A stretch of 64,000 nt of DNA from contig CAYPVZ010000001.1 of the NCBI GenBank assembly GCA_964414235.1, forward strand, positions 3,317-67,316. Direction: 5' to 3'. This document shows, piece after piece, positions 10,496 through 28,900 of this stretch (within the stretch, counting starts at the first letter, position 1; each line of letters opens with the position of its first letter). A model generated the notes under the pieces. The model was not told where the DNA came from. It did no database searches and saw only the letters and a list, made by a program, of their open reading frames with translations. The stretch comes from an uncultured Rhodothermales bacterium (GTDB taxonomy: Bacteria; Bacteroidota; Rhodothermia; Rhodothermales; Rubricoccaceae). Both the position numbers and the translations under genes were made by a program.

Positions 10496-11482
10496 TTACC
10501 AGCGTGCTCGACCCCACGAGGCCAGGGTTCGAGCGAGCGTCTCACTCCGTTCTACGACGGCGACTTCGACGGAGAACCCCGCGCGCAGCTCGGTCGGCGT
10601 CCCGGCCGCGCCGACGATAGCGGCGACGGCATCGGGATCGACGTCCACTTCGACACGCCAGCGCGCGGGGTTGAACTCGCCAAGGGCTTCCGGGCGAGCG
10701 TCGGCCTCTGGCGCCAGGGCGACACGTCTGACGACGCCAGAGGCCTGTCGGGGGCGCTCCTGGGGGACGGCGGGGAAGGTGAGCCGGGCGGGTATCCCCG
10801 GTCGGGCGCGCTGGGCCTCGCGTTCCGGCGCCCACGCGCGGACCACGTGAGCCACGTGTTTGTCGTTGCCGAGGGCAGCCAGGTCGAGCACGGCCTCGCC
10901 GGCGTCGATGCGCGTGCCGCGCTGCTCCTCCAGGTCTTCGGTCAATACGATGCCACCTCGCCAGAGGGAAGCGGGGTCGGTGTTGCCATCCCCTCGTCGC
11001 TCGCTCCACGGAGGGGCGCGTATGTCCAGGCGAGCACGTCTCGCGAGAAGCGCGGGATCGTGGCCGGTCGAGGCGCGTGTCGCCTCGTCTAGCTCGGGCG
11101 AGCGGAGCCGGGCGATCAGCTGACCAGGGCGGACGGTGTCGCCTGCGGCGACGTGGATCTCGGTGAGCAGGCCCGACTCGGCAGCGCGGACGGACATCAC
11201 GCGCTCGGGCACGAGCTGGCCGTCGAGTTCGACGGTCCGCGAGATCGGGACGGTGAGCGCGACCCCGACCGCGAGGACGCCTATCCAGCCGACGGCGCGC
11301 AGGATGCGCTTCCCGGCTCGCTCAGCGCCCTCCGCTCCCGAGAAGCGGGAGCCGGGTCGCTGTGGACCGCCACCGGCGGCCGGGGCTCCGAGTGCCTGGC
11401 TGGTGTCGGGGACCGTGAGCGTCCATGCGCGCGGAGCCGCGCGGACTGGCGCCTGTCTCGTCGTGCTGCCGTCTCCCTGCAT
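10496..11482 (-). CDS. HlyD-like membrane fusion protein
   Basis: One TM segment then lipoyl-like SVRAAESGLLTEIHVAAGDTVRPGQLIARL; C-terminal LRAGFSVEV; directly after ABC gene; ATG at 11482. Confidence 0.75.
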   Translation of the reverse strand: MQGDGSTTRQAPVRAAPRAWTLTVPDTSQALGAPAAGGGPQRPGSRFSGAEGAERAGKRILRAVGWIGVLAVGVALTVPISRTVELDGQLVPERVMSVRAAESGLLTEIHVAAGDTVRPGQLIARLRSPELDEATRASTGHDPALLARRARLDIRAPPWSERRGDGNTDPASLWRGGIVLTEDLEEQRGTRIDAGEAVLDLAALGNDKHVAHVVRAWAPEREAQRARPGIPARLTFPAVPQERPRQASGVVRRVALAPEADARPEALGEFNPARWRVEVDVDPDAVAAIVGAAGTPTELRAGFSVEVAVVERSETLARTLASWGRARW

Positions 11483-11484
11483 GG

Positions 11485-13335
11485 CTAGGCTGAGATCGCG
11501 CCGAGGACCGGCGCGGTGGGGACGGACCCGACCTGTCCATCCCCGCTTACGGGTGGCCGCGCTGTCAGTCGGACGGTGCGGTCGGTGAGCGCCGCGTGCT
11601 CGGGCTGATGGGAGACGAGGACGACGGCGGGCGGCTCGGGGAGCTCTTGGATCTCTTCGAGGAGTCGGGAGAGGACTGTGTGAGCGGTTGCGTTGTCGAG
11701 GTTGGCCGCGGCCTCGTCGAGGAGGACCAGGCGGATGGGTGCCGCGGCCACGCGAACGCGCAGGAGGAGCCGTGCGATGCCGAGCCTCTGGCGCTCGCCC
11801 GCAGAGAGGGACGCGCCGCCCTCGGTGAGCGCCACGTCGAGCGGGTCGTCCGTGGCCGACTGTCGGGCGAGCTCCGCCATGCGGTCGCCCAGGGCGCAGG
11901 CGTCGAGGACGGCACTCAGCTCGTCGTCGAGGATCTCTCGACCGGCCACGTCCTCGGCGGCCACCAAGAGGTTGTCGCGGACGGACGACGAGAGCAGGCC
12001 GGGCTCCTGCCAGCAGACGGCCACGTGGTCGCGCCAGTCGGGGGCATCCTGGATGCGGACCCACGACGGGCCTCCGGCGCCAGAGGCCTCGGCCTCGATG
12101 GCGCCGAGGTCGGGGCGCTCGACCTGGCCGAGCAGGCGGAGCGCGGTCGTCTTGCCGCATCCCGACGGGCCGACGAGGGCGACGGCGAGGCCCGGCGCGA
12201 GGTCGAGGTGGTTGAGGTCGAGGCCGGGCGCGTCGTCGGCGTAGCGGAAGCGGACGCCGCGCATTCGGATTCGGCCGGTGTAGCTCAACCCCGTGTCATG
12301 CTCCGTACCGCCGCCAGTCCTGTCCGTCCCCTCGACGCGCGCGATGGTGGCGGCCGGGTCCGCCTCGGGCAGTTCGTCGGCCAGGTCGAACACGCGGCCG
12401 AGCGAGACGGCGGCCTTTTGGAGCTTGCCGCCGGCGTCGATGATCGCGGCGATGGGGGAGAGGAGGAGCGCGGCGTAGGCCTGGAAGGCGATGTAGCCGC
12501 CCAGCGTCAGGTCTCCCGCGAGCACGAGCCGCCAGCCGACGTAGGTGAGCGCCGCCAGGTGGAGCGCCCGCACGACGGCGTTGGTGCCGTTGCACACGTA
12601 CCAAATGCCCGTCGCGGCGACGGTGCCCTCGTGGGCTCGGGCCACATGCATCTGGGCCCGGCGGTACAGCGCGGCCTCACAGCCCATCGACTTGAACGTG
12701 CGGGCCTCGCGGATGGCCTCGACGCGGAACGCGGCCCACTCGTCGTAGGCGTCGTAGGTCTCGGCCCACCGCCGGTTGGCCAGCGTCCCCATCGTCGCTG
12801 TGATCGTGGCCGTGATCGGGACGGCCACAAGAGCGACGAGCGCCAGGCGCGGCTCGATCAGGAGCAGGATCGGTGGGACGGCGAGCAGATAGAGGCTCTG
12901 GCTCATGGCCGTCAGCACGGCGTCGGCTCCCGTGTCCAGGACCTCCTGCACGTCTCCGAAGCGGTTGGCGATCTCGCCGCTGCGCCTCGCCTCGAGCACG
13001 CGAGAGGGGAGATGGAGCACGTGGTTGAACAGCGCCAGGCGTCCGACGTCGCGCATCCGGGTCCGCGCGGCGAAGGCCGTGAAGCGGAAGAGGTTGCGGA
13101 CGACGCCCTCGCCCGCCGTCGCCGCGACGATTCCCAGGACCACCAGGCCGAGCAGGCTCACGTTGCCTGCCGGATAAACGCGGTCGAAGAGCGCGGCCGT
13201 GAGGAGCGGCGCCGTCAGGCCGAGCCCGCCGGAGACGACGGAGAGCGTCCCGGCCCGACCGATGGCGGGCCACTCCGACCGGAAGAGCCGCGCGAGGCGT
13301 CCGAGGTCGTGGAGCGACTGCCGGAGGGACGGCAC
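11485..13335 (-). CDS. ABC exporter (permease + ATPase), type I secretion/bacteriocin-exporter-like, no C39 peptidase domain
   Basis: N-terminal TM domain, GPSGCGKT, LSAGERQRL, LLDEAAANLD, VSH. Confidence 0.9.
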   Translation of the reverse strand: MPSLRQSLHDLGRLARLFRSEWPAIGRAGTLSVVSGGLGLTAPLLTAALFDRVYPAGNVSLLGLVVLGIVAATAGEGVVRNLFRFTAFAARTRMRDVGRLALFNHVLHLPSRVLEARRSGEIANRFGDVQEVLDTGADAVLTAMSQSLYLLAVPPILLLIEPRLALVALVAVPITATITATMGTLANRRWAETYDAYDEWAAFRVEAIREARTFKSMGCEAALYRRAQMHVARAHEGTVAATGIWYVCNGTNAVVRALHLAALTYVGWRLVLAGDLTLGGYIAFQAYAALLLSPIAAIIDAGGKLQKAAVSLGRVFDLADELPEADPAATIARVEGTDRTGGGTEHDTGLSYTGRIRMRGVRFRYADDAPGLDLNHLDLAPGLAVALVGPSGCGKTTALRLLGQVERPDLGAIEAEASGAGGPSWVRIQDAPDWRDHVAVCWQEPGLLSSSVRDNLLVAAEDVAGREILDDELSAVLDACALGDRMAELARQSATDDPLDVALTEGGASLSAGERQRLGIARLLLRVRVAAAPIRLVLLDEAAANLDNATAHTVLSRLLEEIQELPEPPAVVLVSHQPEHAALTDRTVRLTARPPVSGDGQVGSVPTAPVLGAISA

Positions 13336-13336
13336 G

Positions 13337-14800
13337 TCAACGGGTCACGGTGAAGCGCCGCGTCTGGGCAGCGGAGCCGTCCACGGCGACGGCGCGGAGC
13401 ACGTAGACGCCGGTCGCCAGGGCTGTCGTGTCGACCTCGACGACCACGCGGCCGGCGGCAAGTGCGTCGTAGGCCACGAGGGCTTCGCGGCCGAGGGCGT
13501 CGTAGACGACGGCGAGCACGTGGACCGGCTGAGCGAGCATGAGCGTGGCGCTCGTCACGCCAGAGGCCGGGTTGGGAGCCGGAGCGGCGAGCGCGAACGG
13601 CCGTGCGGCCGGGTCGTCCTCGCCCGCAGTCGAGGCCCTGATGGTGAGGCCGATGTCGCCCAGCGCGAACTCGACGCCGTCGCCGTCGAGGGCCGTCAGC
13701 CCGACGCGGTACGTGCCGACCGTCAGGGCCGCGACATCCAGGACGTACGCCGATGGCTGCCCGGTGGCATCTGTCGATCCCCAGGTCTCCCAAGGGGCAC
13801 CGAACACGTCGGGACGTCCGTCGATGCGGAACGCCACGATGCCTTCCTCGGCCGAGGTGCTCCATTCGATGCGGGCACCGTCGTCCGTCTGCACGGCGGT
13901 GAACGAGGCCAGCGCGATCTGCACGGGCGGCGGGCCGAAGGCGCGCGCGGCCAGCGTCGGGTCGAGCACGAACGGGTTGGGGGTGCCCTGGTGGCTCTCG
14001 ATGGTGAGGGTCCGCTCGGTCTCTGCCGGGTCGACCGGGTCCTGAGCGTGCCAGTCGAGGAGCACGTCGCGCTGCGCCGCCCAGAACGGGGCGTCGAGCT
14101 GGTCAGCGCCGAACGGGCCGTAGACGGCCCAGACGTAGAACATGGCGCGGGCCACGTCGCCGGCGACGCTCTCGCGCGGCTCCAGTATGGCGCCCGTTCC
14201 GTTCAGCTTCTCGGTGAAGAGGTCGCGCACCGAGGCGGGAGGCATCGAGGTACGGGTGATGCCGTCGGGACCCCACCAGCGGTCGGCGTCGGCGTCCACG
14301 ACTTCCCCGAACGGGTGGTCGCTGCGGGAGCTGTTGACCGACTGCATCACCGGGGCCAGGTGGTGCATGTCGCGGTGGGCGTCGGTGCCCTCGGTGGCGC
14401 CCTGGTTCTCGGGCCACAGGTGCTCGGTCGAGTAGCGCGGGCTGGCGTTCCACGCTGCGGTCGTCGGATCGAGAGCGGGGTCGAGCCAGATGGCATGGCC
14501 CGAGTAGAAGCCGCGCAAGCTGTCGGTGGACGAGCCGTCGTCGGCTCGCTCCTTGTAAACGGCGGCGAACAGCGTGTCGCGGGCGCGGTCGTAGCCGTAG
14601 GTGCTCGACGGCGCGTAGGTCGAGGCCAGCGCGGTCGTGAGCGCGTCGCCGGAGAGATCGGGGTAGATCGCGGGACCATCGCCGGTCCCTTGCGCCGCTG
14701 CGGTCGGTCCGGCGAGCGCGGCCAGCACGAGGGTAACCATGAGCCGCGCTCGGAGGAGGATGCCCCTTGAGGGGGCCGTGCTTGATGGAGGCGTCGACAT
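13337..14800 (-). CDS. Secreted endonuclease I family protein with T9SS C-terminal sorting domain
   Basis: Signal peptide; TEHLWP, DMHHLAP...VNSSRSDHPF, GDVARAMFY, QGTPNPFV; CTD PNPAS...YDALGRE...GVYVLR. Confidence 0.85.
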   Translation of the reverse strand: MSTPPSSTAPSRGILLRARLMVTLVLAALAGPTAAAQGTGDGPAIYPDLSGDALTTALASTYAPSSTYGYDRARDTLFAAVYKERADDGSSTDSLRGFYSGHAIWLDPALDPTTAAWNASPRYSTEHLWPENQGATEGTDAHRDMHHLAPVMQSVNSSRSDHPFGEVVDADADRWWGPDGITRTSMPPASVRDLFTEKLNGTGAILEPRESVAGDVARAMFYVWAVYGPFGADQLDAPFWAAQRDVLLDWHAQDPVDPAETERTLTIESHQGTPNPFVLDPTLAARAFGPPPVQIALASFTAVQTDDGARIEWSTSAEEGIVAFRIDGRPDVFGAPWETWGSTDATGQPSAYVLDVAALTVGTYRVGLTALDGDGVEFALGDIGLTIRASTAGEDDPAARPFALAAPAPNPASGVTSATLMLAQPVHVLAVVYDALGREALVAYDALAAGRVVVEVDTTALATGVYVLRAVAVDGSAAQTRRFTVTR

Positions 14801-14802
14801 GG

Positions 14803-15606
14803 CTACACCTCCGGGTCGATCCTGTAGCCTCGGACCACCCAGCTTGCGCGAGTGAGCCGGTGGTTCGCGCCGTGGGTGCCGCTGAAACGAGCGAAGACGC
14901 CCGACCCTTCGTTGAATGAGGCGCTCTCGAAGACCTCGCCGCCGTCGTAGGTCGAGAACCGGGGGCGGTCGATGCTGCCGGAGAACGACGGCGCGAAGGT
15001 GACGGGGCCGACGGGCCTGGGGCTGCTCTCCTGGTAGACGACGGTGGACGCCTTGACCTGGCCGTCCACGGCGATGCGCAAGAGGAGCTCGTTGTACGTG
15101 GCCTCAACGCGCTGCCAGCGCCCGGTGCGGACGGCGTAGGGGCGCGTCATGAGCGTCCAGATGTCCTCCTCGCCGTCGACGTAGCCGGGCGTCTGGAAGC
15201 GGACGGCGCCGTCCGGGAGGATGGAGAACCGGAGCCCGGCGTTCGACGCGAGGAGGTGCTGCGTTTCGTCCACGTGGTCGGGCCGGACGTCCATCGCGAC
15301 CCGGAACGTCTGGTCCTGGATCACGGAGAAGGTCGAGGCGAAGACGCTGCGGCCCGGCCCGAAGCGGAGCGCGTAGCCGCGCGGCGGCTGGCAGTCCTCG
15401 CACGGCTCTTTCTGCTGGACCTCGCGGGCGTGGACAGTCGGGACCTCGTCGACACCCGGCTCGGGGAGGTACTGCTTCAGCGCGGCGCGCTCGGCGGCGG
15501 TGAACGCCGAGCCGGTCGGCTCAGTGTCTGCCGAATCGCACGCGGCGAGCAGCGGTGAGAGAGTGACTACGAGGGCGAGCGTGCGAAACAGGGGAGAGCG
15601 GAGCAT
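14803..15606 (-). CDS. Lipoprotein with LamG/concanavalin-like domain
   Basis: Lipobox LLAAC; GRWQRVEATY...IAVDG...FSGSID LamG-type pattern. Confidence 0.65.
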   Translation of the reverse strand: MLRSPLFRTLALVVTLSPLLAACDSADTEPTGSAFTAAERAALKQYLPEPGVDEVPTVHAREVQQKEPCEDCQPPRGYALRFGPGRSVFASTFSVIQDQTFRVAMDVRPDHVDETQHLLASNAGLRFSILPDGAVRFQTPGYVDGEEDIWTLMTRPYAVRTGRWQRVEATYNELLLRIAVDGQVKASTVVYQESSPRPVGPVTFAPSFSGSIDRPRFSTYDGGEVFESASFNEGSGVFARFSGTHGANHRLTRASWVVRGYRIDPEV

Positions 15607-15674
15607 GGCGGAGGCTGAGGGTGTGAGGGTGCCGGCAGGGCGTTCGGCTAGTTGTCTTGGCGACGGGGCGTCGC

Positions 15675-18299
15675 CTACCTGATCACGGTGAGGCGATGGG
15701 TGACGACCTGGGCTCCCAGCCGGGTGTCGCTGGCCGTCGTACCGCCGCTAGAGGCGGTAAGGCGGATGACGTAGACGCCAGCGGCCAGGCTGGACACGTC
15801 GAGGTGCAGGTCTCCGGTGATGTCGTCGTGGCGGGCGACCGCGCGGCCGAGCGCGTCGAAGACGGTGGCCTCGACGCGGACGCCAAGCGGCGCGTCGATC
15901 CGGAGGCGCGTCGAGGTGCGGGCCGGGTTGGGGCCGGGCGGCGAGACGGTCAACCCGTCGGCTGCGTCCGCCTCGGTCCTGAGGCGGGAGGAGTCGTTGC
16001 CGCCCTCGCCTCCGAGGAGGGAGGGGCGGTCCTCGTCGTGGCCGGTGTCGACGGCCGGGGCGAGGAGCCCGAGGGGGACGGGGTCGCCAGAGGCCCACCC
16101 GCTGACGGCGTTCGCCAACAGGATGCCGGAACGGAGCGCGCTCGGCGCCTGGAAGTCGCCCAGGCGCCCTCGCGTCTCGGGGAGCGGGCCGGTCCAGGAA
16201 AAGTCGGTGTAGGCGTCGCCCGCGCCTGTGAGCTGGAGCGAGTACCCGGGGGGCAGTTCGCTCCACTCCTGGACGCGGCGGTGCGTGCCGCTGGGTTGGC
16301 GCGGCCCCCGGATGACGGTGCTCCACGCGAGGGAGTCCGGATGCGACGGCGATCCCGCGCCCGGAACGGTGGCTTCGGCGGCGTCGAAGACCGGCCCCTC
16401 GATGGCGTTGAACATGCAGCCGCCGGTGCTGAGGAACTGCAGGAGGACGCCGTCGGGGTCGGTGAGCGCGAGGCCCTGGCAGCCTCCGCGCAGGCGCTCG
16501 GCGCCCTGCCAGACGGCGCCGATGCCGCCGCCCTCGTCGTCGATGGTGCCTCGGAAGGCGACGGCGGGCGAGCCGTCGGTGCCGTCGCCGTCGACCTGGT
16601 ACAGGAACCCGTAGCCGGAGTAGGCCCAGACGCGGTAGCCGTAGAGGTCCGTCCCGGCGCGTCCCGCGATCTCGATGCCCTCGAAGGCGTCGGGGCCGTC
16701 GTTCGAGTGGTGGATCTCGTTGATCCAGAGGTCGCGCGGGCGGGGCGCGTTCGGGCCCTGGTAGAAGGTCCGCGCCACGAGGGTCGGGTCGAGGACGAAC
16801 GGGTTACGGTTGCCCTGGACGCGGTAGATCCGCTCGTTCCGCTGGACCTCGAAGGCGTCGACGGGGTCGGCCTCGTGCCAGGCGCGGAGCACGTCGAGCG
16901 TGGCGTCGATAAAGGCGCGGCCCTCGTCGCCGTCCTCGGCCTCGATGCGATACGTGACGAGGAAGTAGGCGGCCATCCGGGCCACGTCGCCACGGAGCGC
17001 GTGGCGCACGTCGAAGCGGCCGAGCTCGTCCAGGCTCTTGTAGCCGTCGCCGTCGTCGGGCTGGCGGAGGAAGTCGAACTCGACGCGGCTCCACGTCGCC
17101 GGGTCAGTGGGGGGGGCCGACGCGTTGTAGCGCACCGTGCTGTTGCGGAGCCACTTCTGGGTGTCGCTCGGCTGGTCGAAGTCGTCTCCGAAGGCCCGGT
17201 TGGAGCGCGCGCTGTTGAAGGTGCCCAGCGCCGGGGCGAGGTGGTGGAGGTCGTTGTGCGAGGCGCCGTCGGTGGAGGGCCCGGTCTGGGCGCCCCGGCT
17301 GCGCGGCCACACGTGCTCCGTGTTGAAGTCCTGGTCCTGCATCTGCGCTCGAGGCGAGAGCGGGACCTCCCGCTCCCACGACCGCACGAGCCCGCCGTAG
17401 AGGCCGCTCAGGTCGTGGAGCGTGTTGCTGCCGACCTGCCGGACAGACTCGACCCAGACAGTCTCGAAGAGGTGGTCGCGGGCCTCGTCGTAGTGGAACG
17501 TTTGGACGGGGGCGTACTCGGCTCGGAGACAGCTTTCGGCGTTCCAGCCCCGGAGCCCGTCACAGATGACGCCGATGGGCGTGCTCGGCACGAGCACCGC
17601 CACGTCCTCGACGCGGGCGTGGTAGCCGTCCGGGTTGGGATGGATGGGCGCCTCGGCCGCGAGCGCGAAGGCACCCACGCCGACGAAGCCGGGGACCGTC
17701 GGGCTTGGAAGCAGGACGCCGTCCACGTGGACGGTCCAGGTGTGACCGTTGGTCGTCGGCGTGCTCTCGACCTCGACGGGTATGCGGCGCGAGTGGTCGG
17801 CGACGGGGAGCGTACCTAGCCCGACGGAGGTGGTGACGGCGCCGCCGGTGACGGCGATCGCATCGACGGCCACCGTCGTGCCGTTCGGCGTCCAGCGGAG
17901 CCGGAGCGCGGCGAAGGTCTGGGCGTCGAGGTAGCGGTCGATGAGGTAGAGGGTGACGTCGGCCGCGTGGCTGTTCGGCTCCCACACGACGGCGCGCAGG
18001 GTCCGCTCGCCAGTCGGCCCCTGGCCCACGGCCACGGCGTTCGACCCCGGCTCGAAGTTGACTTTCGAGCTGGTGATCTTCGGTTTGAGCCCGTCGCTCG
18101 CGGTCCCGTCGACGGTCCAGCGCGCGCCGATCTCGGGCGTGTGCTGGTCGATGGGTGTGTCGCCCGCCTGGCAGCACATCGTGTCGATGAACGCGAGCGC
18201 CTGGTCGTCGCTGCCGTACGTCTGGGCGGCCACCGGGACGGCGGCGAGCACGACGCACGCGGCGAGGAGGGAGCAGAGCGAGAGGGGAGAGGGGCGCAT
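15675..18299 (-). CDS. Secreted multidomain endonuclease I (plus lamin-tail-like domain) with T9SS sorting domain
   Basis: Signal peptide; FNTEHVWPRS, DLHHLAP...FNSARSN, RGDVAR, QGNRNPFV; LWINEIHHSNDG.D..EGIEIAG; CTD PNPAR...FDALGR...GVYVIRL. Confidence 0.85.
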   Translation of the reverse strand: MRPSPLSLCSLLAACVVLAAVPVAAQTYGSDDQALAFIDTMCCQAGDTPIDQHTPEIGARWTVDGTASDGLKPKITSSKVNFEPGSNAVAVGQGPTGERTLRAVVWEPNSHAADVTLYLIDRYLDAQTFAALRLRWTPNGTTVAVDAIAVTGGAVTTSVGLGTLPVADHSRRIPVEVESTPTTNGHTWTVHVDGVLLPSPTVPGFVGVGAFALAAEAPIHPNPDGYHARVEDVAVLVPSTPIGVICDGLRGWNAESCLRAEYAPVQTFHYDEARDHLFETVWVESVRQVGSNTLHDLSGLYGGLVRSWEREVPLSPRAQMQDQDFNTEHVWPRSRGAQTGPSTDGASHNDLHHLAPALGTFNSARSNRAFGDDFDQPSDTQKWLRNSTVRYNASAPPTDPATWSRVEFDFLRQPDDGDGYKSLDELGRFDVRHALRGDVARMAAYFLVTYRIEAEDGDEGRAFIDATLDVLRAWHEADPVDAFEVQRNERIYRVQGNRNPFVLDPTLVARTFYQGPNAPRPRDLWINEIHHSNDGPDAFEGIEIAGRAGTDLYGYRVWAYSGYGFLYQVDGDGTDGSPAVAFRGTIDDEGGGIGAVWQGAERLRGGCQGLALTDPDGVLLQFLSTGGCMFNAIEGPVFDAAEATVPGAGSPSHPDSLAWSTVIRGPRQPSGTHRRVQEWSELPPGYSLQLTGAGDAYTDFSWTGPLPETRGRLGDFQAPSALRSGILLANAVSGWASGDPVPLGLLAPAVDTGHDEDRPSLLGGEGGNDSSRLRTEADAADGLTVSPPGPNPARTSTRLRIDAPLGVRVEATVFDALGRAVARHDDITGDLHLDVSSLAAGVYVIRLTASSGGTTASDTRLGAQVVTHRLTVIR

Positions 18300-18363: not shown

Positions 18364-19227
18364 CTAGAACTGGCAGGCCGGGTCGTCCGGGTCGTAGCCG
18401 CCCGAGTAGCACACGCACTTGCAGCCGTCGTCCACTGGCAGATTGCAGTCGTCGCAGATGTCCCCTCCGGTCATGGCCTGCCAGCCGCTCACGGCCAGCG
18501 CCCAGAGCGAGAAGAGCCCGGTGGCGACGCTCGCCCTCTGGACATCCACGTGGCCGCTGCTCTCGACGGGTGCCTCGTGACGGTCGACGTGGAGGGGCAG
18601 CGCCCCGCCCACGGCCGAGCCGATCATGGCGAGGAGCATCAGCGTGGCCGCGAGGGCACGCGCCGTGCCGACCAGCCGCGTGCCGACGGTGCTCCGCGCC
18701 TCACGGTCCGTCGCTCGGATGCCGCCCAGAGACTCCGCCAGCGCACGGCGCGCGACGGGCTGCCCGCCGACGGGGCGATTGTCGCCGTCGGCGCCCCGCT
18801 CCGGGGGATCGTTCGGGCCGGGCGGGTTGTCGGCCTCGGCCGTCAGCGAAGAGGACACCGACCCGTGGCTCGGCCCTCGGCTCGGCGGATCGTGCGGGTT
18901 GGGGGGATCGTCGGTCTGGGCCGTCGGGCGCTGGTGGATGGGCTTGCGCCGGTCGGTCACCGGGTCGGGTGCCGGCCCGTCCTCGCTGCCGCCGGTACCG
19001 CCGCCAGAGGACGGGCGCCGGTGGATGATCTTGCGCCGGTCGAGCCCGTCGGGCGGCGGGCCGTCCTCGCTGCCGTCGGCGCGGGGCGACGTGCCACGGT
19101 GGACGACCTTCCGGCGGTCCGGGCCGCTTTCGTTGTTGATGACGCGTCGACGGTCGGACGCGGGGTCCTCCGGACTGTCCGTGGTGCCGCCTCCGGAGAC
19201 GGGGATGGGGAGAGCGAGAGCGCTCAT
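18364..19227 (-). CDS. Repeat-rich protein with hydrophobic segments and a C-terminal GG + 6-Cys peptide
   Basis: ATG at 19227 (MSALALPIP); internal repeats; ends WQAMTGG-DICDDCNLPVDDGCKCVCYSGGYDPDDPACQF. Confidence 0.6.
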   Translation of the reverse strand: MSALALPIPVSGGGTTDSPEDPASDRRRVINNESGPDRRKVVHRGTSPRADGSEDGPPPDGLDRRKIIHRRPSSGGGTGGSEDGPAPDPVTDRRKPIHQRPTAQTDDPPNPHDPPSRGPSHGSVSSSLTAEADNPPGPNDPPERGADGDNRPVGGQPVARRALAESLGGIRATDREARSTVGTRLVGTARALAATLMLLAMIGSAVGGALPLHVDRHEAPVESSGHVDVQRASVATGLFSLWALAVSGWQAMTGGDICDDCNLPVDDGCKCVCYSGGYDPDDPACQF

Positions 19228-21095: not shown

Positions 21096-22583
21096 CTACT
21101 TGTGAAGCCTCGTCCAGAGCTTGGTCACCTCGTGCACGACGGGGTCGTCGAGGTGCCCGTTGGCGGCGTGGAAGGCGAGGAGCTTGCCTGCGGCCTCCTC
21201 GTAGGTCCTGGCGCGGCTGCGCTTAAAGAAGTGCCAGCGCTTGGGCGGCTCGTCGCAGAGGAGCGCGCGGAGGTAGCGGACAGTGTCGGCGGAGGCGACG
21301 GGGCTCGCGATGCCGGTCTCGTCGAGGACGTGGGCCTCGTGGGCCACCGCGCGGTCCCGCCCTACGGCGTCCTCGAACAGCTCGAAGACGTCGGTGCGGA
21401 GGCGGTCGAGCTCCGTCGCGAGGGGGTGGCGTGCGCTGGGGCGCGCGTGGACTGGGGATTGGGGACCAGGGACTGGGGGAGATGGGAGCGTGGCGATCGT
21501 CGGCGCGATGGGGGCCTCTGGCGAGAGAGGGGGCTCCACGTAAGCCTCCCCATCGCCAGAGGCCTCTTCGTCCTCCCGACCCTCGGCGGGTGCCACAGGC
21601 TCGTCCGGCTCGTCCAGGACGGCGAGAGCGAGACCGCTCGATGTGAGCGGGCCAGCAGGGGAGAGGGGCCTCCCGGGAGATCCGCCCTGTAGCTCGGCGA
21701 CGAGGGCGCTCAGGCCGGTCGCGTGGGGATGGGTGGGCTCGACGAGGCGGGGGCGGTCGGCTCGCTCGCGGAGGTAGCTCTCGACGGCCTCAGCTTGTTC
21801 GTCTGGACTCGCGTCGGCCGGGGATGCCGCCAGGACAGCGGAAGGCTCCGCATGGCCGTGTGGGGATGCCGACCCCCGGCGCGCGAGCGCCAGGCGGTTG
21901 GCTTGCTCGATGATGCCGTCGAGATCGAAGGCCCGGTCGGTCCGGTCCAGCAGGGTGGCGCGGTTCTTCGCCCGGTCGTAAAGCAGCACGCGCCCGGTGA
22001 TCCCGTCGAGGTGGGGCGCGAGGGCCAGGGCCAGGACCTCCTCGCCATCTGTATCGTCGTCGTACGCTCCCCCCAGATCGGCGAGATCGAGGAGATGGAC
22101 CCGTGGGCGTTCGGGGTCCGCAAAGTCGTTGATCTCGAGGACGCCGCCACGACAGCTCGAGCGGGCGATCTGCCGCGCGACGAGTGCGGCGGAGGCAGAC
22201 CCGTCGACGTGGAGCTTGAGGCACTCCGCGTAGAAGACGGTCTCCAGAAAGCGGGCGCACTCGGCGTCCGCCAGCTCGAAGAGGCTGAGCGAGGCGGCGT
22301 GTCCGGCGTCGCGGTGCTCGAAGAAGCGCGTGAGCGCGGCGGCGGGCGTGACCGGGAAGCGGTAGTCCGGCGTGGTGCGGGCGACGGCGAGGAGCTGCCC
22401 CGAGGAGGCCACGAAGGCGTCGTAGACGGGTCCGAGCGCGCCTCCGCCAGAGGCCGCGTTCTCCGCCCCGTAGCACACGACGATGAGCGACACGACCCCC
22501 TGGGCCTGCTGGTCCGCGAGGCCGACCGGGTCCGCGAAGGACGCCGGGACATGCTCGAAGATGGGGCGTGCCGTCGAGAGCAT
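21096..22583 (-). CDS. Hypothetical protein (495 aa)
   Basis: ATG at 22583 (MLSTARPIF), 5 nt after the previous stop; its stop abuts the ATPase start. Confidence 0.65.
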   Translation of the reverse strand: MLSTARPIFEHVPASFADPVGLADQQAQGVVSLIVVCYGAENAASGGGALGPVYDAFVASSGQLLAVARTTPDYRFPVTPAAALTRFFEHRDAGHAASLSLFELADAECARFLETVFYAECLKLHVDGSASAALVARQIARSSCRGGVLEINDFADPERPRVHLLDLADLGGAYDDDTDGEEVLALALAPHLDGITGRVLLYDRAKNRATLLDRTDRAFDLDGIIEQANRLALARRGSASPHGHAEPSAVLAASPADASPDEQAEAVESYLRERADRPRLVEPTHPHATGLSALVAELQGGSPGRPLSPAGPLTSSGLALAVLDEPDEPVAPAEGREDEEASGDGEAYVEPPLSPEAPIAPTIATLPSPPVPGPQSPVHARPSARHPLATELDRLRTDVFELFEDAVGRDRAVAHEAHVLDETGIASPVASADTVRYLRALLCDEPPKRWHFFKRSRARTYEEAAGKLLAFHAANGHLDDPVVHEVTKLWTRLHK

Positions 22584-22588: not shown

Positions 22589-23410
22589 TTAGGGAGCGAG
22601 GTCGTCCTCGGATCGGAGTCCAGGGCGGACTCCGGCCTCTGGCGTGACCACAGCGAGATCGGGGTCTCCACCAGCGTCGAGCGTCGCCAGTCGGGCGGCG
22701 TTGGTGGCCTGGGCGTGCTCGGCCGAGAGGAGCGCGAGGCGTTGGCGCGCGAGCCCTTCGTAGTCGAGGTCGCCCTGCTCGTACTTCATCTCGGCGAGCC
22801 TCGTCAGCTCCCGCTGGGCCTCGACGCGGCGGGCGAGGTAGTCGGCCTCGATGCGGAGCTGAACGGCGGCGAGCTCGGCCCGACGTCGGGCCACGGCGTC
22901 CCGCTCCCGTTCCTCGGCCTGACGTTCGGCGCGGGCGATGGCCCGTTCGCGGGCCAGGGTCTCCTGCCGCTCCCGCCGGGCGTGGTGGAGGTCGATGCGC
23001 GCTTCGGCGAGGGTGACGGCGGCGCGGGCACGCTGGACGGGTCGGCGGTCGAGGAGTTGTTCGAGCGACCAGGAGGCCGTCAGGCCCCACGTGTCGCCCG
23101 GCCACCGGGCAATGGCGGCGTAGGCGGGGTCGTAGCCCTGGCTGCTGATGGAGGGGAACGCCAGCCCGCGCGTGGAGACGCTGAGGAAGAGGTCGAGCTG
23201 GGGTCGGAGGCGTGAGAGCCCGGAGACGGACTGCAGCTCTTGCCGCGCGAGGCCGAGGCGGGCCTCCTCGATGCGGAGCGCGGCCGTCGACGTGTCGGCC
23301 GCGAGGAGGAGGTCTGACAAGGGATCGCCGCTGCCATCGGGAAAAACCGGCTCCTGAGAGTGGGAGACGGCCGAGCCGAGCAGAGCGAGAACGAGGAGGA
23401 CTGGGCGCAT
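22589..23410 (-). CDS. Short TolC/outer-membrane efflux-like protein
   Basis: Signal peptide; RPQLDLFLSV and WGLTASWSL strands; coiled coil; EMKYEQGDLDYEGL resembling the TolC repeat; about half usual TolC length. Confidence 0.6.
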   Translation of the reverse strand: MRPVLLVLALLGSAVSHSQEPVFPDGSGDPLSDLLLAADTSTAALRIEEARLGLARQELQSVSGLSRLRPQLDLFLSVSTRGLAFPSISSQGYDPAYAAIARWPGDTWGLTASWSLEQLLDRRPVQRARAAVTLAEARIDLHHARRERQETLARERAIARAERQAEERERDAVARRRAELAAVQLRIEADYLARRVEAQRELTRLAEMKYEQGDLDYEGLARQRLALLSAEHAQATNAARLATLDAGGDPDLAVVTPEAGVRPGLRSEDDLAP

Positions 23411-23415: not shown

Positions 23416-23763
23416 TCAGGCCTGGGCGGGCTCGCGAGCGAGCGCCTGGATGGTCGGGGCCTCAGACGGGTCGAGCCCGGCCGCGGCGGCGAGCACCTCG
23501 AGGAAGCCGTCACCCAGGACGGGGGTGCGGTCGAAGAGGGCGAGGGTCTGGCTGGCGAGTTCGGCGTGGAAGCCGGGGGGCATCGCCTGGTAGTGCTCGC
23601 AGTGGTGGAGGCGGAGCGCGGCGTAGGCCTGGCGGTCGTGGTCGAGACCCGTGGCCTCGAGCGCCTCGCGGACGACGCAAATGTCGAAGCGGTGCGAGGT
23701 CAGCATCCGGTAGAGCGCGAGGGCCACGGAGCGGCGACGGAAGGGGTCGATGGTGTCGAGCAT
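23416..23763 (-). CDS. Hypothetical protein (115 aa)
   Basis: ATG at 23763 (MLDTIDPF); protein-like composition; 5 nt from next start. Confidence 0.55.
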   Translation of the reverse strand: MLDTIDPFRRRSVALALYRMLTSHRFDICVVREALEATGLDHDRQAYAALRLHHCEHYQAMPPGFHAELASQTLALFDRTPVLGDGFLEVLAAAAGLDPSEAPTIQALAREPAQA

Positions 23764-23906: not shown

Positions 23907-24791
23907 CTATCCCTCCGTGTTCTCGCGGATCACGACGCCGTCGCCGCCCCGCTGCTTCGTCTGGCGGAAGGTGCCGTTGACGTAGTCGTTGCGCGAGACG
24001 ACCGAGCCGTCGCTCGTGTCGCCGGACGAGAGGAGGGTCCGGAGGAGCGTGCCGGTCACGTTGCCCTCGGCGTCGATGGCGAAGTCGGCGCCGTAGTAGC
24101 GCGTGCGGACTGAGCCGTCGGGGCCGCCGTCGCGGAGCGTGCCGGTGCCGTTGGTGTTGAGCGTGGCCACGGGCTCGCGGACGGTGACGGACTCGCGCAG
24201 TTCGGCGTTGGCGTAGGAGACGACCGCCTCGCCCTCGGCGGGGGAGTAGACCTGGGCGACGCGCCACGTGTCGTAGGCGGCGAAGCTGGCCTCGGCGTCG
24301 TTGGACGCGCCGGTGAGGTACGGAATGGAGCCCGCCTGGAGCGCCGAGACGAAGCCCGCGAGGTCGGCGTAGGTCAGGAACGAGAGCGTGACTGACTCGA
24401 CGGCGTCGAGGCCGCCCACGTCGCGGGCGTGCTGGACGCGGGCCTGCCAGACGCCGACGCCCTGCGGCTCCCGGTATTGGAGCTGCACGAGGAAGCCCTT
24501 GGCGTTGACGGCGTCATAGACGCCGGTGTAGGTCGTCGTGTCGACGCGGGCGCTCATCGAGGCCATCGCGCGGGGGCTCGACGCGGAGGCCGCCCGAGCG
24601 GCCGATCCGGAGTCGCCGAAGCCGAGCGAGAACAGCTCTTCGACCTCCTCGAAGGCGGCCGTGACGAGGGCCGACTGGTCGGCCGAGATGGGGTCGATGG
24701 GATCGGGGCCGGTCGGTCCGGGGGTCGAGCCCGTGGCGTCGCACGCGGCGAGGAGGAGCGCCAGGGGCGCGAGGAGGAGAACGCGGAGCAT
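23907..24791 (-). CDS. Lipoprotein of unknown function
   Basis: Lipobox LLLAAC; beta-rich C-terminal half. Confidence 0.7.
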   Translation of the reverse strand: MLRVLLLAPLALLLAACDATGSTPGPTGPDPIDPISADQSALVTAAFEEVEELFSLGFGDSGSAARAASASSPRAMASMSARVDTTTYTGVYDAVNAKGFLVQLQYREPQGVGVWQARVQHARDVGGLDAVESVTLSFLTYADLAGFVSALQAGSIPYLTGASNDAEASFAAYDTWRVAQVYSPAEGEAVVSYANAELRESVTVREPVATLNTNGTGTLRDGGPDGSVRTRYYGADFAIDAEGNVTGTLLRTLLSSGDTSDGSVVSRNDYVNGTFRQTKQRGGDGVVIRENTEG

Positions 24792-25109: not shown

Positions 25110-26822
25110 CTAGGGAGGGGCCGGGCGAGGGGTTGCGCCGGTCCGCGGAGAGACCAGCACGACGCGGACCTCGGTGCGGTCGGGACCGAGGGCGCGCGTC
25201 TCGATGCGGCGGACGACGCCTGCGCCAGAGGAGCGGACGATGCCGTCGCGCGAGGTGGTGGAGGGGCGGAGGCGAGCCCGGCGGAGGCGGGCCGTGGCCT
25301 CGCGGATGCGCTCGGCCTGGGTGCGCTGCCATGCGGCGGCACGAGCCGCGGCCTGGGACTCGGCCGCCGCGAGTTGGGCGCGGAGGTCGGCGGCCTGGGC
25401 GCGAGCGGCCTCGACGGCACTCCGGGGCTCGAAGCCCTCCGCGTGGCGGTCGGCCGTCCGGCGTGCGACCGCCTCCGCCTCGGTGAGCCTCTGGCGGAGC
25501 GAGACGGGGTCGGCAGCGGGTGGGCGCGGTGCCGCGCGGGCCGCCGCCAAGTCGGCCTCCGCCTCGGCGACATCGAGGCGGGCTGTGACGAGGGCCGACG
25601 AGGTGAGGACGGCGAGGGTGTCGCCGACGGCGACGGTCTGCCCCTCCTCGACGAGCAGGCGGGGCGGCTCGGACGGCTTGTGCGCGAACGTCACGCGGCG
25701 GACCTCGGAGCGAGCGGTGTCCTGTGGGTCGTAGTCCTCGGCTTCGCCTTCGCGCGTGAACACGCGGAGTGTGACGGTGCCCTGTTCGACGAGGAGCCCG
25801 GAGAGGGTCAGGCGGTCGAGGTCGGCGAGCGTCGCGAACTGGAACGAGAGCCGCTTCTCGGAGCCCGTGACGGTGTCGAAGCGGAACTCGTCGGGCGTGA
25901 TGCCTGCGGCCTCGGTGACGGTGACCTGCCCGTCGATGAGGTGGCGGACGGGGCGGCCGTCGGGGCCGTCGGGCACGAGGGACTCGAGGTCGGCCAAGAC
26001 GCGGCCGTCGAGCGTGATCTGCCGCCGGGAGACCTGCACGCGGTCGCCTCGGTGGGCGATGACGCGGTCGGGCTGGAAGTTGGCCGAGTAGGCCGGGCCG
26101 AGGGAGAAGACGCGGCCGTCGGTGGTGTCGCGGACGAGGAGCGTGTTGGCGCCGGTCGTGCCGACGGCCTCGAATCGACCCTCCAGGCGCTGGAGGTGCT
26201 GGGGGTCGGACGCCTCGACCTCGATCTCGACGAGGTACCCCTCGGCGGACCAGTCGAGGAAGTCGCGGACGGCGGCGCCGGCGTCGGCCTGCACCTTGCG
26301 GACGAAGCGCTGGTAACCGTCGTGCTCCAGGACGGCGAAGGGGACGGTGAGGCAGACGAAGGCGATGCCGAAGAAGGCGTCGACGCGGCTGCCGGTCGTC
26401 GTGCGGTAGGCCGTCTCCTGGCGGTTGTAGTAGGGGAAGACGCCCCGGCGGTCGGACCAGGGCCAGAAGACGCGGACGCCCTGGACGGTCCAGGTGTCGA
26501 GGAAGGGGTGGGAGACGTAGCCGACGACGACGGCCGCGTATAGGTGGGGGAGCCCGGTCCAGAGGAAGGGGAGGGCGAGGAGGGCGACCGCGGCCTGGGC
26601 GGCGTAGCAGTGTGTGATGGTGCGGTGGCCGAAGCGGCGCTCGATGCGCCGCGCCAGAGGCGCGAAGACGCGGCCGACCGTACTCCCGAGCGTGTCGACG
26701 TCGGGGGCCGCCGAGGCGGCGGCGGCCACGACCACGCCGGTGGCCGTCCAGGGGACCTGGAAGAACGTGGCGGCGACGGTGTAGCCGAGGACGCCTCCGG
26801 CGACGTGGGTGCCGAGTCTCAC
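25110..26822 (-). CDS. YdjM/DUF457-like membrane metal-dependent hydrolase fused to an HlyD-like lipoyl/coiled-coil module
   Basis: GTH, APDVD, GHRTITH, SHPFLD metal motifs in TM region; C-terminal LLVEEGQTVAVGDTLA + coiled coil + VRSSGAGVV; GTG at 26822 overlaps upstream stop. Confidence 0.75.
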   Translation of the reverse strand: MRLGTHVAGGVLGYTVAATFFQVPWTATGVVVAAAASAAPDVDTLGSTVGRVFAPLARRIERRFGHRTITHCYAAQAAVALLALPFLWTGLPHLYAAVVVGYVSHPFLDTWTVQGVRVFWPWSDRRGVFPYYNRQETAYRTTTGSRVDAFFGIAFVCLTVPFAVLEHDGYQRFVRKVQADAGAAVRDFLDWSAEGYLVEIEVEASDPQHLQRLEGRFEAVGTTGANTLLVRDTTDGRVFSLGPAYSANFQPDRVIAHRGDRVQVSRRQITLDGRVLADLESLVPDGPDGRPVRHLIDGQVTVTEAAGITPDEFRFDTVTGSEKRLSFQFATLADLDRLTLSGLLVEQGTVTLRVFTREGEAEDYDPQDTARSEVRRVTFAHKPSEPPRLLVEEGQTVAVGDTLAVLTSSALVTARLDVAEAEADLAAARAAPRPPAADPVSLRQRLTEAEAVARRTADRHAEGFEPRSAVEAARAQAADLRAQLAAAESQAAARAAAWQRTQAERIREATARLRRARLRPSTTSRDGIVRSSGAGVVRRIETRALGPDRTEVRVVLVSPRTGATPRPAPP

Positions 26823-27106
26823 GGGGACGGGGGACTCGGCACCGGGGGGCTGTCGACAGGCTCCGCGTCGTCCTCGAAGCGGACCTCGCGGTGGGGGTTG
26901 AGCCGCTGGAGGTGGGCGACGACCTCGTCGCCAGAGGCCTCTGGCGTGAAGGGGAGCGGGAGGGGACCGAGCCCGGCGAGGCGCGTGAGGGCGGGGTCCT
27001 CTACGACGTAGCCGGTGGGGGACCGGCGGATCGTGAGCGGCGGCCGCGAGCGCGGTCGGGTGCGTGCGCTGCGGGCGGGTCTCCGAGGCGGGACGGGCGT
27101 CGGCAT
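26819..27106 (-). CDS. Small hypothetical protein (95 aa)
   Basis: Start/stop overlaps on both sides (TGATG at 27106, GTGA at 26822). Confidence 0.55.
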   Translation of the reverse strand: MPTPVPPRRPARSARTRPRSRPPLTIRRSPTGYVVEDPALTRLAGLGPLPLPFTPEASGDEVVAHLQRLNPHREVRFEDDAEPVDSPPVPSPPSP

Positions 27107-27510
27107 CAGCTCCGGAACATGATGGTGGTGAGCGCCCACGCCTCGGTGCGGTCGGAGCCGTCGAGGCGGGCGTAGAGTTCGACCGTGTATTCGCCCTGGG
27201 GGGCGAAGAGGCCGCTCGGTCCGACCCCTCGCCAGGCGGCGGTACGGGCACCCGCGGTCTCGCGGCGCTCCTCGGTGATCTGCCGGACGAGCGCGACCGA
27301 TCCGTCGGCCTGCGGCTGCGTGATGCGGATCTGGACGTGGGCCGGTTCAGCGAGGGTGTAGCGGATCTCGCACGGCCCGGTGAAAGCGTTGAAGGTGGGG
27401 TCGACGCGGAAGCCCGAGACGATCTGGAAGTCCGTGGGGCCGGTGGGCGGGGTGCATCCCGACGCTGCCAGGAGCACGAGGACCGCGAGCAGGGGAGAGG
27501 GCCGCCTCAT
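27106..27510 (-). CDS. Lipoprotein with FlgD-like Ig domain
   Basis: Lipobox-like ASGC; IRYTLAEPAHVQIRI...AWRGVGPSG..APQGEYTV. Confidence 0.65.
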   Translation of the reverse strand: MRRPSPLLAVLVLLAASGCTPPTGPTDFQIVSGFRVDPTFNAFTGPCEIRYTLAEPAHVQIRITQPQADGSVALVRQITEERRETAGARTAAWRGVGPSGLFAPQGEYTVELYARLDGSDRTEAWALTTIMFRS

Positions 27511-27812
27511 CGGTCCGCCTGGACGAGGCCGCCGAGGTCGTCGACGCCCGGGGTGTGGGTGGTCGTGACGGGAACGAGCGCGCCCGGCTCCCCGTCCGGT
27601 CCGGCCGGAGCCCGGAAGTAGTGGACGTAGCGGGTCGCCGGTGCGGGGTGGGGGAGACCCAGCGAGAAGGCGTAGCGGTGCCGCGTGATGCCGAGCGGGT
27701 CACCGGCGTGGATGAGCAGGGCCGCGAGGTGGCAGTGGGCGGCCTCCGCCTCGGGCGAGAGCCGGTCGAAGACGAGGCGTTCGGGGGACTCGGGGAGGAG
27801 GGAGCGGCGCAT
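27507..27812 (-). CDS. Small hypothetical protein (101 aa)
   Basis: ATG at 27812 overlaps recombinase stop (TGATG); stop overlaps next ATG. Confidence 0.55.
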   Translation of the reverse strand: MRRSLLPESPERLVFDRLSPEAEAAHCHLAALLIHAGDPLGITRHRYAFSLGLPHPAPATRYVHYFRAPAGPDGEPGALVPVTTTHTPGVDDLGGLVQADR

Positions 27813-28900
27813 CACGAGTGGGAGCGGGCCATCCGGGGCGCGAGGACGGGACCCCGGGCGTGCTCGCGGGCACCGAGGGCGGTGGCCTCCACCAGCTCGC
27901 GCAGGCCCTCCTCGTCGACGTGGGTGTAGACCTCGGTGGTCTGGATGGTGGCGTGGCCGAGCAGCTCCTGGACGCCCCGGATGTCGCCCGAGGACGCGAG
28001 CAGCCGCGTCGCGAACGTCCGCCGCAGGACGTGGGGAGTGAGGCGGTGGCGGGCGCGGATCCGCTCGCCGACGCGCTTGCACTCGCGGGCGACCTGGCGG
28101 GGGACGACGCGGCAGCCGGTGAGCGTGACGAAGACCTCGTCGGCCGAGGAGGGGACGTAGCGCCGGACGGCGAGCCAGTCGAACATGGCCGGGTAGGCGA
28201 AGCCGACGAGCGGGACCGTGCGGGTCTTGGAGCCCTTGCCCGTGAACGAGAGGTAGAAGCCGTCGGGCCGCGTGACGATGGCGTCGCGGAGGAGGCCGAG
28301 GACCTCGGCGCACCGGAGGCCCGCGAAGGCCATGAGCGTGAAGGTGGCCCGCCTGCGCCCGGCGGTGAAGAGAGAGGCGAAGGCGCGCGTGCGCTCGGGG
28401 CCGCGCTCGGCCTGCTCCAGGCGACGGTTGGCCTCGGCGACGTCGTCCGAGAGCAGGGCGACGGCCCGCTCCAGTTCGTCGTCCGAGAGGACCTTGTGCG
28501 TCTCGCTCTTCCGGTCGAAGGCCGGGAGGTCGAGCGCGTCGAAGGGGTTGGCCGAGACGACCTCGATGCCTCGGAGGAACCGGTAGAACGACCGGACGCA
28601 GCTCACCCGGCGTCGGACGGTCCGGGGTGCCGCCTCGGTGGAGAGGCGGGCGAGGTAGCGCTCGGCCGCGCGGCGTCGGACGGTCCGGAGCGTCAGGCCC
28701 TCGGCATCGAGGAACGCCCCGTAGTGCTGGAGGTCGATCCGGTAGGCCCGCTCGGTGTGACGGCTGCCGGTCCGGGTGTGCCGGGTGCGCCCGATGAACA
28801 GCTCGACCGCCTCCTCGAACGTCGTCTCCCGCGCCGCGATCACGAGGTCCGCATCGGGCGGACGGGAAGGATCGTCGAGGAGTCGGGGCGTGGGGATCAC
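27812..28900 (-). CDS. XerC/XerD-like tyrosine recombinase
   Basis: SAM-like N-terminus (TERAYRIDL); catalytic GLRCAE, GKGSK, HVLRRTFAT, LGHATI, TEVYTH. Confidence 0.93.
   Translation of the reverse strand: MIPTPRLLDDPSRPPDADLVIAARETTFEEAVELFIGRTRHTRTGSRHTERAYRIDLQHYGAFLDAEGLTLRTVRRRAAERYLARLSTEAAPRTVRRRVSCVRSFYRFLRGIEVVSANPFDALDLPAFDRKSETHKVLSDDELERAVALLSDDVAEANRRLEQAERGPERTRAFASLFTAGRRRATFTLMAFAGLRCAEVLGLLRDAIVTRPDGFYLSFTGKGSKTRTVPLVGFAYPAMFDWLAVRRYVPSSADEVFVTLTGCRVVPRQVARECKRVGERIRARHRLTPHVLRRTFATRLLASSGDIRGVQELLGHATIQTTEVYTHVDEEGLRELVEATALGAREHARGPVLAPRMARSHS

Follow-up and report, generated by a model that had tools for sequence, protein, structure and literature searches.

A recombinase-headed gene run of a Rhodothermales bacterium contains a mobile core that is predicted to span the envelope and may export DNA

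We analysed a window of 64,000 nucleotides (nt) that covers nearly all of contig C1 (67.9 kb) of an uncultured marine Rhodothermales bacterium, and in particular a run of 17 genes at window positions 10496–28900, which a preliminary description made from the letters alone had proposed to encode one envelope-spanning system co-expressed with a recombinase. The genes were numbered from g01 (recombinase) to g17 (HlyD-like). All 17 open reading frames (ORFs) lie on the minus strand, and their GC content at third codon positions (GC3, 0.80–0.96) is of the coding type. The first five genes overlap by 1, 4, 1, and 4 nt directly behind the XerCD-like recombinase, as had been described. The statement that many of the other genes lie 0–5 nt apart held in part: 10 of the 16 junctions are ≤5 nt when ATG 22583 and ATG 11482 are taken as the starts of g09 and g17, whereas six gaps measure 64–318 nt (318, 143, 70, 220, 64, and 68 nt). 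The results showed that the front of the run contains a core of genes recurring in distant bacteria on mobile DNA, which may be a conduit for the export of that DNA.

The run is headed by g01 (27812–28900), a XerC-like tyrosine recombinase of 362 amino acids with a core-binding (SAM) and a catalytic domain. It is followed by g02 (27507–27812), a variable protein of 101 amino acids with no match in Pfam, NCBIfam, or PHROG, by the core lipoprotein g03 (27106–27510), which has a lipobox and a FlgD Ig-like domain, and by g04 (26819–27106; 95 amino acids). The core protein g05 (25110–26822; 570 amino acids) combines a YdjM-family membrane hydrolase with an SH3-like barrel and a membrane-fusion (adaptor) module. 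Behind it lie the core lipoprotein g06 (23907–24791; 294 amino acids, with a lipobox), the family of which was not recognised, and g07 (23416–23763; 115 amino acids), which was found in the close relatives only. The remaining core proteins are g08 (22589–23410), an exported, half-length TolC-like protein with one OEP repeat; g09 (21096–22583), a cytoplasmic protein of 495 amino acids with two conserved ends and a variable linker rich in proline and acidic residues; and g10 (19947–21095), an AAA+/STAND-like ATPase with two C-terminal membrane helices. Atlas searches with g06 and g09 gave weak leads, the best for g09 being PatA_N-like at 0.82.

Downstream of the ATPase, the accessory genes g11 (19448–19876; a Gly/Asp/Pro repeat protein of 142 amino acids) and g12 (18364–19227; a repeat protein with a hydrophobic segment and a six-Cys tip) precede g13 (15675–18299), an endonuclease I of 874 amino acids with a signal peptide and a type IX secretion system (T9SS) tail scoring above the TIGR04183 cut-off. 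A LamG/ConA-like lipoprotein with a lipobox, also accessory, is encoded by g14 (14803–15606), and a second endonuclease I of 487 amino acids by g15 (13337–14800), with a signal peptide and a weak T9SS tail (20 bits against a 23-bit cut-off). The run ends with two accessory genes, g16 (11485–13335), an ABC exporter without a C39 peptidase domain, and g17 (10496–11482), a HlyD-like protein with a membrane anchor and a very short hairpin. The earlier domain calls thus hold for the YdjM-adaptor fusion, the ATPase with C-terminal transmembrane helices, the three lipoproteins, the two T9SS-tagged nucleases, the ABC exporter, and the HlyD-like protein. A sigma-70 scan of the run returned no promoters, and terminators were no commoner than expected by chance. 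A TTGACA block at about 28985–28992 (minus strand) is kept in all five upstream regions aligned for g01; a canonical −10 element is missing at 16–18 nt. Two sequencing runs recorded as RNA held pieces of relatives, some of them crossing gene junctions; their contigs reach up to 63 kb, so that they are uninformative on transcripts.

To separate core from cargo, the run was compared with six fully visible close loci (G036, G016, G023:C11, G023:C10, G020:C2, and L032), in a sample where many loci are closely related and the G036 element recurs as L029. The genes g01 and g03–g10 were kept in order in all six, and g02 was present in three. Since the gene order is preserved at 45–99% protein identity, it is not due to chance. 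At least one T9SS-tagged endonuclease I follows the ATPase in all nine loci that reach that far. The other tail genes are far less constant: in the seven loci where 9 kb or more of sequence was visible downstream, the ABC/HlyD pair was found in three, g11 in two, the full g12 in two (its tip only in three), and the LamG protein in one. The exporter g16, present in 4 of 50 genomes of the host family, is always accompanied by g17, and both are missing from four of the seven relatives, among them the circular G020:C2. The full order of the run is kept in G016, and the tail genes g11–g17 are 93–98% identical to those of G016 and 52–83% to those of G036, whereas g05, g06, and g10 are 88–95% identical to both. 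This skew suggests that the tail was exchanged en bloc. As the ABC/HlyD pair occurs in only 3/7 relatives, it is best classed from these comparisons as swappable cargo rather than core, together with the LamG and repeat proteins. The g05 family is present in 7 of 50 genomes of the host family, and the close named homologues of the g10 ATPase are from Rubricoccus and Rubrivirga, which makes a host within the Rubricoccaceae likely. One genome, G023, carries two module contigs (C10 and C11) besides two separate conjugative contigs.

The g05 protein matches Pfam YdjM (E 8e-26) and a lipoyl-like piece. Its structural model, of moderate confidence (mean local confidence, pLDDT, 72; predicted template-modelling score, pTM, 0.42), shows a helical YdjM head, a strong membrane helix at residues 147–165, an SH3-like barrel, a second barrel, and the adaptor module, which matches EmrA, HlyD, and MacA. 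Residues 172–263 match the TrmB barrel (Z 10.6, root-mean-square deviation 2.7, 87 aligned residues). The metal-site motifs PDxD and HRxxTH are present in 27/27 sequences, and H105 and D109 are invariant in 19. According to PMC8557891, YdjM is related to the phospholipase C, HET-C, and S1-P1 nuclease domains, so that the g05 head, which keeps the metal-site residues of this fold and differs from the family by its barrel and adaptor extension, could cleave lipid or nucleic acid.

The half-length TolC-like nature of g08, suggested in the preliminary description, is supported by its orthologues. We found no Pfam family match for g08 itself, and hmmsearch against sequences of the Protein Data Bank returned nothing TolC-like. 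An hhalign comparison with a three-sequence TolC alignment gave a probability of 4.9% (E 0.008), close to the 2.8% of a coiled-coil control. However, 8 of the 17 scanned orthologues from Ignavibacteria-type loci (described below) match a single OEP repeat (TolC, PF02321; E ≤0.012, best 3e-11), where control TolC matches two. From these orthologue matches, g08 is predicted to be a half-length TolC-like protein, six copies of which would equal one TolC trimer.

The g10 protein gave AAA_16/NACHT matches and was modelled as an AAA+ domain with two membrane helices (pLDDT 89); it belongs to a family of P-loop proteins of about 300–380 amino acids with a C-terminal membrane hairpin (116 representatives). 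A search of 401 genomes of the phylum gave strong full-length matches in 10 other genomes, and one family, represented by 17 genomes, accounted for 8 of these. For a complex of g05 (residues 1–365) with g10 (residues 38–382), the prediction score was 0.41, as compared with 0.00 for the best control, with at least 67% contact agreement between runs and a partner pLDDT of at least 70. Among solved complexes, 116 of 157 reached the mark applied, as did 2 of 215 mismatches; 18 of the 157 and both mismatches did so with scores up to 0.60. The prediction thus lends weak support to docking of g10 on g05.

The catalytic motifs of g01 are complete (R196, K222/K225, H290-x-x-R293, H316, and Y325), and it scores below the XerC and XerD equivalog cut-offs. 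A dif-like 11-6-11 palindrome with the core ATAA-N6-TTAT and 10/11 arm symmetry lies 240 nt upstream (29141–29168); it is one of two ATAA-N6-TTAT matches in the 4.15-Mb genome and is kept 240–330 nt upstream of g01 in G036, G016, G023:C11, L032, and G020:C2. An 11-6-11 palindrome just upstream is the typical layout of Xer-type resolution sites. Because g01 is intact and has the dif-like site, its likely target, upstream, it is likely a plasmid resolvase with a predicted role in dimer resolution. XerCD/dif, Cre/loxP, and ResD/rfsF represent the XerCD and single-recombinase types of plasmid resolution system; g01 resembles these in its motifs and palindrome and differs from them in falling below the equivalog cut-offs and in heading an envelope gene run. 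A perfect 11-6-11 palindrome was also seen at position 24049 of L021 (pALVIN01), upstream of a DNA-binding protein and tyrosine recombinase pair.

A recombinase-type protein is tied to the module in three forms: intact as in g01, as a catalytically dead head protein, and as a catalytic-only tyrosine recombinase fused to the ATPase, the last in all three Bacteroidota plasmids inspected (Flavobacterium, Haliscomenobacter, and Spirosoma). The fused forms share the catalytic-only build of the TcpM/MobK/MpsA relaxases, which, according to PMC8152469, work with a type IV system; g01 differs in keeping the core-binding domain and the dif-like site.

The run is plasmid-borne and is flanked by two replication initiator genes, each with an iteron-type repeat array. 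On the downstream side are a 22-bp iteron array (10109–10381), the origin of the downstream replicon, and an RPA-family plasmid replication initiator (8555–9988, minus strand); the 22-bp iteron core also occurs singly at 8548, just 3′ of the initiator gene and 1.56 kb from the array. On the upstream side are a second iteron-like array (29880–30053) and a RepA_C plasmid replication initiator (30227–31363, minus strand), which takes the equivalent position in G036, G016, and G020:C2; a second, unrelated tyrosine recombinase lies just past it (32783–33841, plus strand). We found no terminal repeat on contig C1. The replicon with evidence for circularity is G020:C2 (94.5 kb; Rep3, ParA, and RepA_C), where the run begins near the contig end and resumes at the contig start; the split falls inside g09, and the replicon is therefore circular.

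Core genes also co-occur far outside the close relatives. The preliminary description would have been refuted had homologues of the core genes not occurred together in other genomes; they do, which supports an undescribed envelope-spanning system. Seven of the front ten genes of the run recur in tRNA-adjacent elements of about 12 kb, here called Ignavibacteria-type. After removal of L105–L108 (short N-terminal matches) and L068–L073 (duplicates of other loci), 33 such loci remained, of which 12 with less than 8 kb upstream were dropped. In the 21 loci counted, g05 was found in 20, g08 and g09 in 19 each, g06 in 13, and g03 in 11. In contrast, g02, g04, g07, g11, g12, g14, and g17 had no match in the Ignavibacteria-type loci, and g13, g15, and g16 had one weak match each. 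With no real counterpart in the 33 loci, ABC and HlyD cannot be counted with the core. The common layout starts with a head recombinase-like gene and the envelope genes, followed by a replication initiator of phage type, a PolX-like gene, a RadA-like gene (in 13/21), the ATPase, and an integrase. Whole elements measure about 12 kb (L090, L091, and L094), and the core makes up most of the element.

These elements are probably integrated, since a tRNA gene, of six kinds in all, lies at the integrase end in 16 of the 27 loci scanned. As terminal integrase, some elements have a tyrosine recombinase and others a large serine recombinase (L080, L081, L083, L086, L089, L092, L096, and L101), suggesting that the integration module is exchangeable. 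Neither capsid nor conjugation genes were present among the clustered ORFs. In two loci the half-TolC gene is followed by a metallo-beta-lactamase-fold protein (L067, 2726–3985, T9SS-tagged; L079, 3491–4651) and in four others by a small T9SS-tail-like ORF (L074, L083, L090, and L091); such T9SS-tagged products echo the T9SS nucleases of the run.

On plasmids, the ATPase and YdjM genes form a pair in four phyla, and the ATPase gene lies in one operon with a long YdjM gene in all 10 plasmid records inspected. The core was found on pSYSX of Synechocystis PCC 6803, on Thermus plasmids of 19–25 kb, in Picosynechococcus PCC 7002, and on a 14-kb Flavobacterium plasmid; the Thermus and Flavobacterium versions include the single-repeat TolC, and plasmids of 14–19 kb hold just 3–7 module genes. 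In the cyanobacterial versions a HerA/coupling-protein-like ATPase directly follows YdjM, and thermonucleases lie beside the core in Thermus and cyanobacteria. In PLSDB, an ATPase-family member matched 39 plasmids (Thermus, cyanobacteria, Gammaproteobacteria, and Bacteroidota), 38 typed non-mobilizable and one conjugative, and g05 matched 56, 54 typed non-mobilizable and two conjugative, although the labels given by MOB-suite are not reliable in these hosts and the non-mobilizable counts stand without a base rate. The 404 thermonuclease matches comprised 191 conjugative, 117 mobilizable, and 96 non-mobilizable plasmids and do not serve as a base-rate control for these hosts.

We then compared the core with the families that define conjugation, phages, and defence. 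The six module contigs, of which those other than G020:C2 may be incomplete, had no match to relaxase PF03432, coupling protein PF10412, or VirB4/TraG PF19044; all matches to these lay on four further contigs, in G016, G020, and G023. G000 and G036, both 91% complete drafts, had no relaxase, coupling protein, or VirB4. The relaxase families PF03389, PF08751, and PF01076 were absent from all five genomes (MOBH and MOBT were not searched), as was PF13814, the control for which gave no signal. In G020:C2 there was no relaxase or type IV gene among the 53 of 65 called ORFs scanned, the other 12 being module, RepA_C, helix-turn-helix, and overlapping-frame ORFs; a small NikA-like match adjoins ParA, in a partition position. 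The ATPase family was found in 0 of 50,697 phage records and g05 in none, and the only PHROG matches among the 17 proteins were of hydrolase, replication initiator, and integrase type. The PADLOC 2023 system models, scanned with 11 proteins of the run, gave no match for the core genes beyond one P-loop fragment (E 7e-4). Judged by the features that define them, the core belongs neither to the tripartite exporters nor to the conjugation systems, the phages, or the catalogued defence systems, although it borrows adaptor and TolC folds.

The reading we prefer, with a probability of about one half, is that the core is an element-encoded, relaxase-free conduit that exports the element's own DNA across both membranes. 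It is favoured because the core is confined to mobile DNA where examined, because it occurs in minimal elements that have replication and integration genes and no recognised genes for spread, because module contigs are separate from conjugative replicons within genomes, and because DNA enzymes (HerA-like, RadA-like, and the fused recombinase) recur beside it. From the observed gene content, order, mobile location, and domain families we infer a mechanism of the following kind. Six g08 half-TolC subunits would form the outer duct, the adaptor half of g05 would span the periplasm, and its YdjM head, with the phospholipase C/P1-nuclease-fold metal site, would lie at the inner membrane. Membrane-anchored g10 would dock on g05 and gate, assemble, or feed the duct. 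Acting at the dif-like site, g01 would maintain the plasmid as a monomer. The fusion seen in other Bacteroidota plasmids suggests that the ATPase may be coupled to DNA through a DNA-binding domain of the recombinase type. The lipoproteins g03 and g06 may serve surface contact or assembly. Proteins with Sec and T9SS signals exit by the host T9SS route; since the nucleases carry both, they would leave that way and could clear competing DNA outside. With such a conduit the element could spread although no relaxase or type IV secretion system is recognisable in it. Of the roles offered in the preliminary description, DNA handling or cell-contact transfer is the most likely; antagonism belongs to the protein-export alternative below.

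The closest functional model is transjugation by ICEth1 of Thermus thermophilus, a tRNA-inserted element of about 14 kb with a recombinase, a hexameric ATPase (TdtA), and nucleases, which exports DNA without a type IV system (PMC5365140). TdtA belongs to a different class of DNA translocases, and the abstract of that report names no duct, whereas the present module has an AAA+/STAND-like ATPase and its own adaptor and half-TolC. More broadly, the module might represent a fourth route of self-transfer in at least four phyla, with a hexameric half-TolC duct, a YdjM-fused adaptor, a membrane AAA+ ATPase, and a tyrosine recombinase coupling the DNA; we consider this wider proposal somewhat less likely than not. 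If true, it would explain part of the 'non-mobilizable' plasmid world. The spread of plasmids that lack relaxase and conjugation genes has long called for an explanation, and the core is a concrete candidate, testable in the laboratory hosts that carry it. Even with a substrate other than DNA, a half-TolC, a hydrolase-fused adaptor, and an AAA+ ATPase would make an envelope machine for which our searches revealed no published counterpart. The open-access literature, to which these searches were confined, gave no account of the module, subscription papers and bioRxiv supplements being outside our reach. The window holds the richest form of the module and adds the split between core and cargo, the candidate recombinase site, and the link to the integrative elements of about 12 kb.

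Several points weigh against DNA export. To our knowledge, there is no precedent for DNA passing a TolC-type duct. The folds nearest to g10 are RuvBL, the RFC clamp loader, Cdc6, CED-4, and Apaf-1; it is not of the FtsK/HerA pump class, and the HerA-like gene is found only in the cyanobacterial versions. The GNP motif is present in g10, no conserved glutamate directly follows Walker B D202, and position 49 is Asn where 57 of 59 family members have Arg. AAA+ features such as a GNP motif without the post-Walker B glutamate fit a STAND-like switch or assembly ATPase, and such a role for g10 fits as well as that of a pump. The run itself has no HerA- or RadA-like gene. With its core-binding domain (Phage_int_SAM_1) and dif-like site, g01 resembles a common resolvase. 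In the Ignavibacteria-type elements, the head recombinase has the binding domain and lacks the catalytic HxxR/H/Y, and no dif-like site was found there. In trees, a common origin of the head and fused recombinases was neither recovered nor rejected (approximately unbiased test, p-AU 0.39 and 0.37). No att repeats were found around the Ignavibacteria-type elements in 15 loci, nor in 10 cases with longer flanks. As noted, many of the loci are closely related, and transfer, export, and expression are predictions from sequence. A few carriers (one of the 39 ATPase-family and two of the 56 g05 plasmids) are typed conjugative, and, according to 10.64898/2026.01.13.699239, relaxase-less elements can hitch with oriT (origin of transfer) alone.

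It is also conceivable, though unlikely, that the core exports a protein or peptide (a toxin, an adhesin, or the lipoproteins) as a tripartite system without a pump, in which the AAA+ ATPase takes the place of the ABC engine, and that it serves antagonism or life in biofilms. The adaptor and TolC-like parts do come from protein and drug export families, and YdjM is kin to phospholipase toxins and a toxin tip elsewhere (PMC8557891). Like HlyB-HlyD-TolC, MacAB-TolC, and EmrAB-TolC, the core has a periplasmic adaptor fold (g05, with barrel, lipoyl, and hairpin parts) and an OEP-repeat outer-membrane factor; unlike them, it has a YdjM-fused adaptor, one OEP repeat instead of two, an AAA+/STAND-like ATPase, and a location on mobile elements, and no ABC, RND, or MFS engine is inherited with the adaptor and TolC. 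Moreover, no substrate or immunity gene is conserved across phyla, plasmids of 14–19 kb hold only 3–7 module genes, and the recurring partners are DNA enzymes.

We regard as similarly improbable that the core serves as a barrier in the envelope or remodels it so as to exclude incoming DNA or phage, with a STAND-like ATPase as the switch and YdjM and the nucleases as effectors. The STAND-like character of g10 would suit this, as would the secreted nucleases beside the core here, the thermonucleases in Thermus and cyanobacteria, the T9SS-tagged metallo-beta-lactamase-fold protein in L067, and the richness of the contig in defence genes. However, the core has no PADLOC match beyond the P-loop fragment, a duct and adaptor point to outward transport, and the minimal elements would be left without their own means of spread.

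Still less likely, in our view, the elements depend on co-resident conjugative plasmids for mobilisation in trans, through an oriT or a recombinase-type relaxase, and the core is a mating-contact or entry accessory. Separate conjugative contigs do occur in G016, G020, and G023, a small NikA-like match lies beside ParA on G020:C2, and both recombinase-like relaxases (PMC8152469) and oriT-only hitchers (10.64898/2026.01.13.699239) exist. On the other hand, G000 and G036 showed no conjugation genes in drafts that are 91% complete, the NikA-like gene is in a partition position, and a hitcher has no need of an outer-membrane duct.

That all 17 genes form one co-expressed machine, with ABC, HlyD, and half-TolC as type I secretion, is very improbable in spite of the co-orientation, the 10 tight junctions, and the full order kept in G016, as the distribution largely refutes it (ABC/HlyD missing in 4/7 relatives including circular G020:C2), the identity contrast between g11–g17 and g05/g06/g10 is a sign of block exchange, and g17 has almost no hairpin (about 25 residues between the lipoyl halves, against the long hairpin of HlyD) and scores 34 bits against the 209-bit HlyD-class cut-off, g16 scoring 172 bits against 693 for the HlyB class. 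The TolC-like gene travels with the YdjM-adaptor and the AAA+ ATPase and not with ABC; since ABC and HlyD are not co-inherited with the core, the type I secretion reading of the preliminary description joins parts that are inherited separately, and what stands of its single system is an undescribed envelope-spanning core.

The remainder of contig C1 contains many defence and anti-restriction genes. A Lamassu-like defence locus (39592–44384, minus strand) comprises a SIR2-domain protein, a 197-amino-acid gene product, and an SMC-like ATPase best matching LmuB. A NACHT-type protein of 1439 amino acids (2235–6554, minus strand) resembles the EruA/HyoA anti-phage proteins, below the cut-off, and has a homologue on the matching side of the run in G036 and G023:C11. 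A protein of 983 amino acids (51357–54308, minus strand) joins an Mrr-type nuclease N-terminus (PDC-S73/Aga-like matches) to a STAND-type ATPase, and two large tandem SEC-C motif proteins (1144 and 575 amino acids; 33875–39023, minus strand) lie in a stretch of lower GC. Genes for a Strawberry-notch helicase (57304–60747), a RadC/JAB protein (50417–51244), and a DUF6166 protein (55554–56678), all on the minus strand, are what we take to be typical leading-region anti-restriction cargo of transmissible elements.

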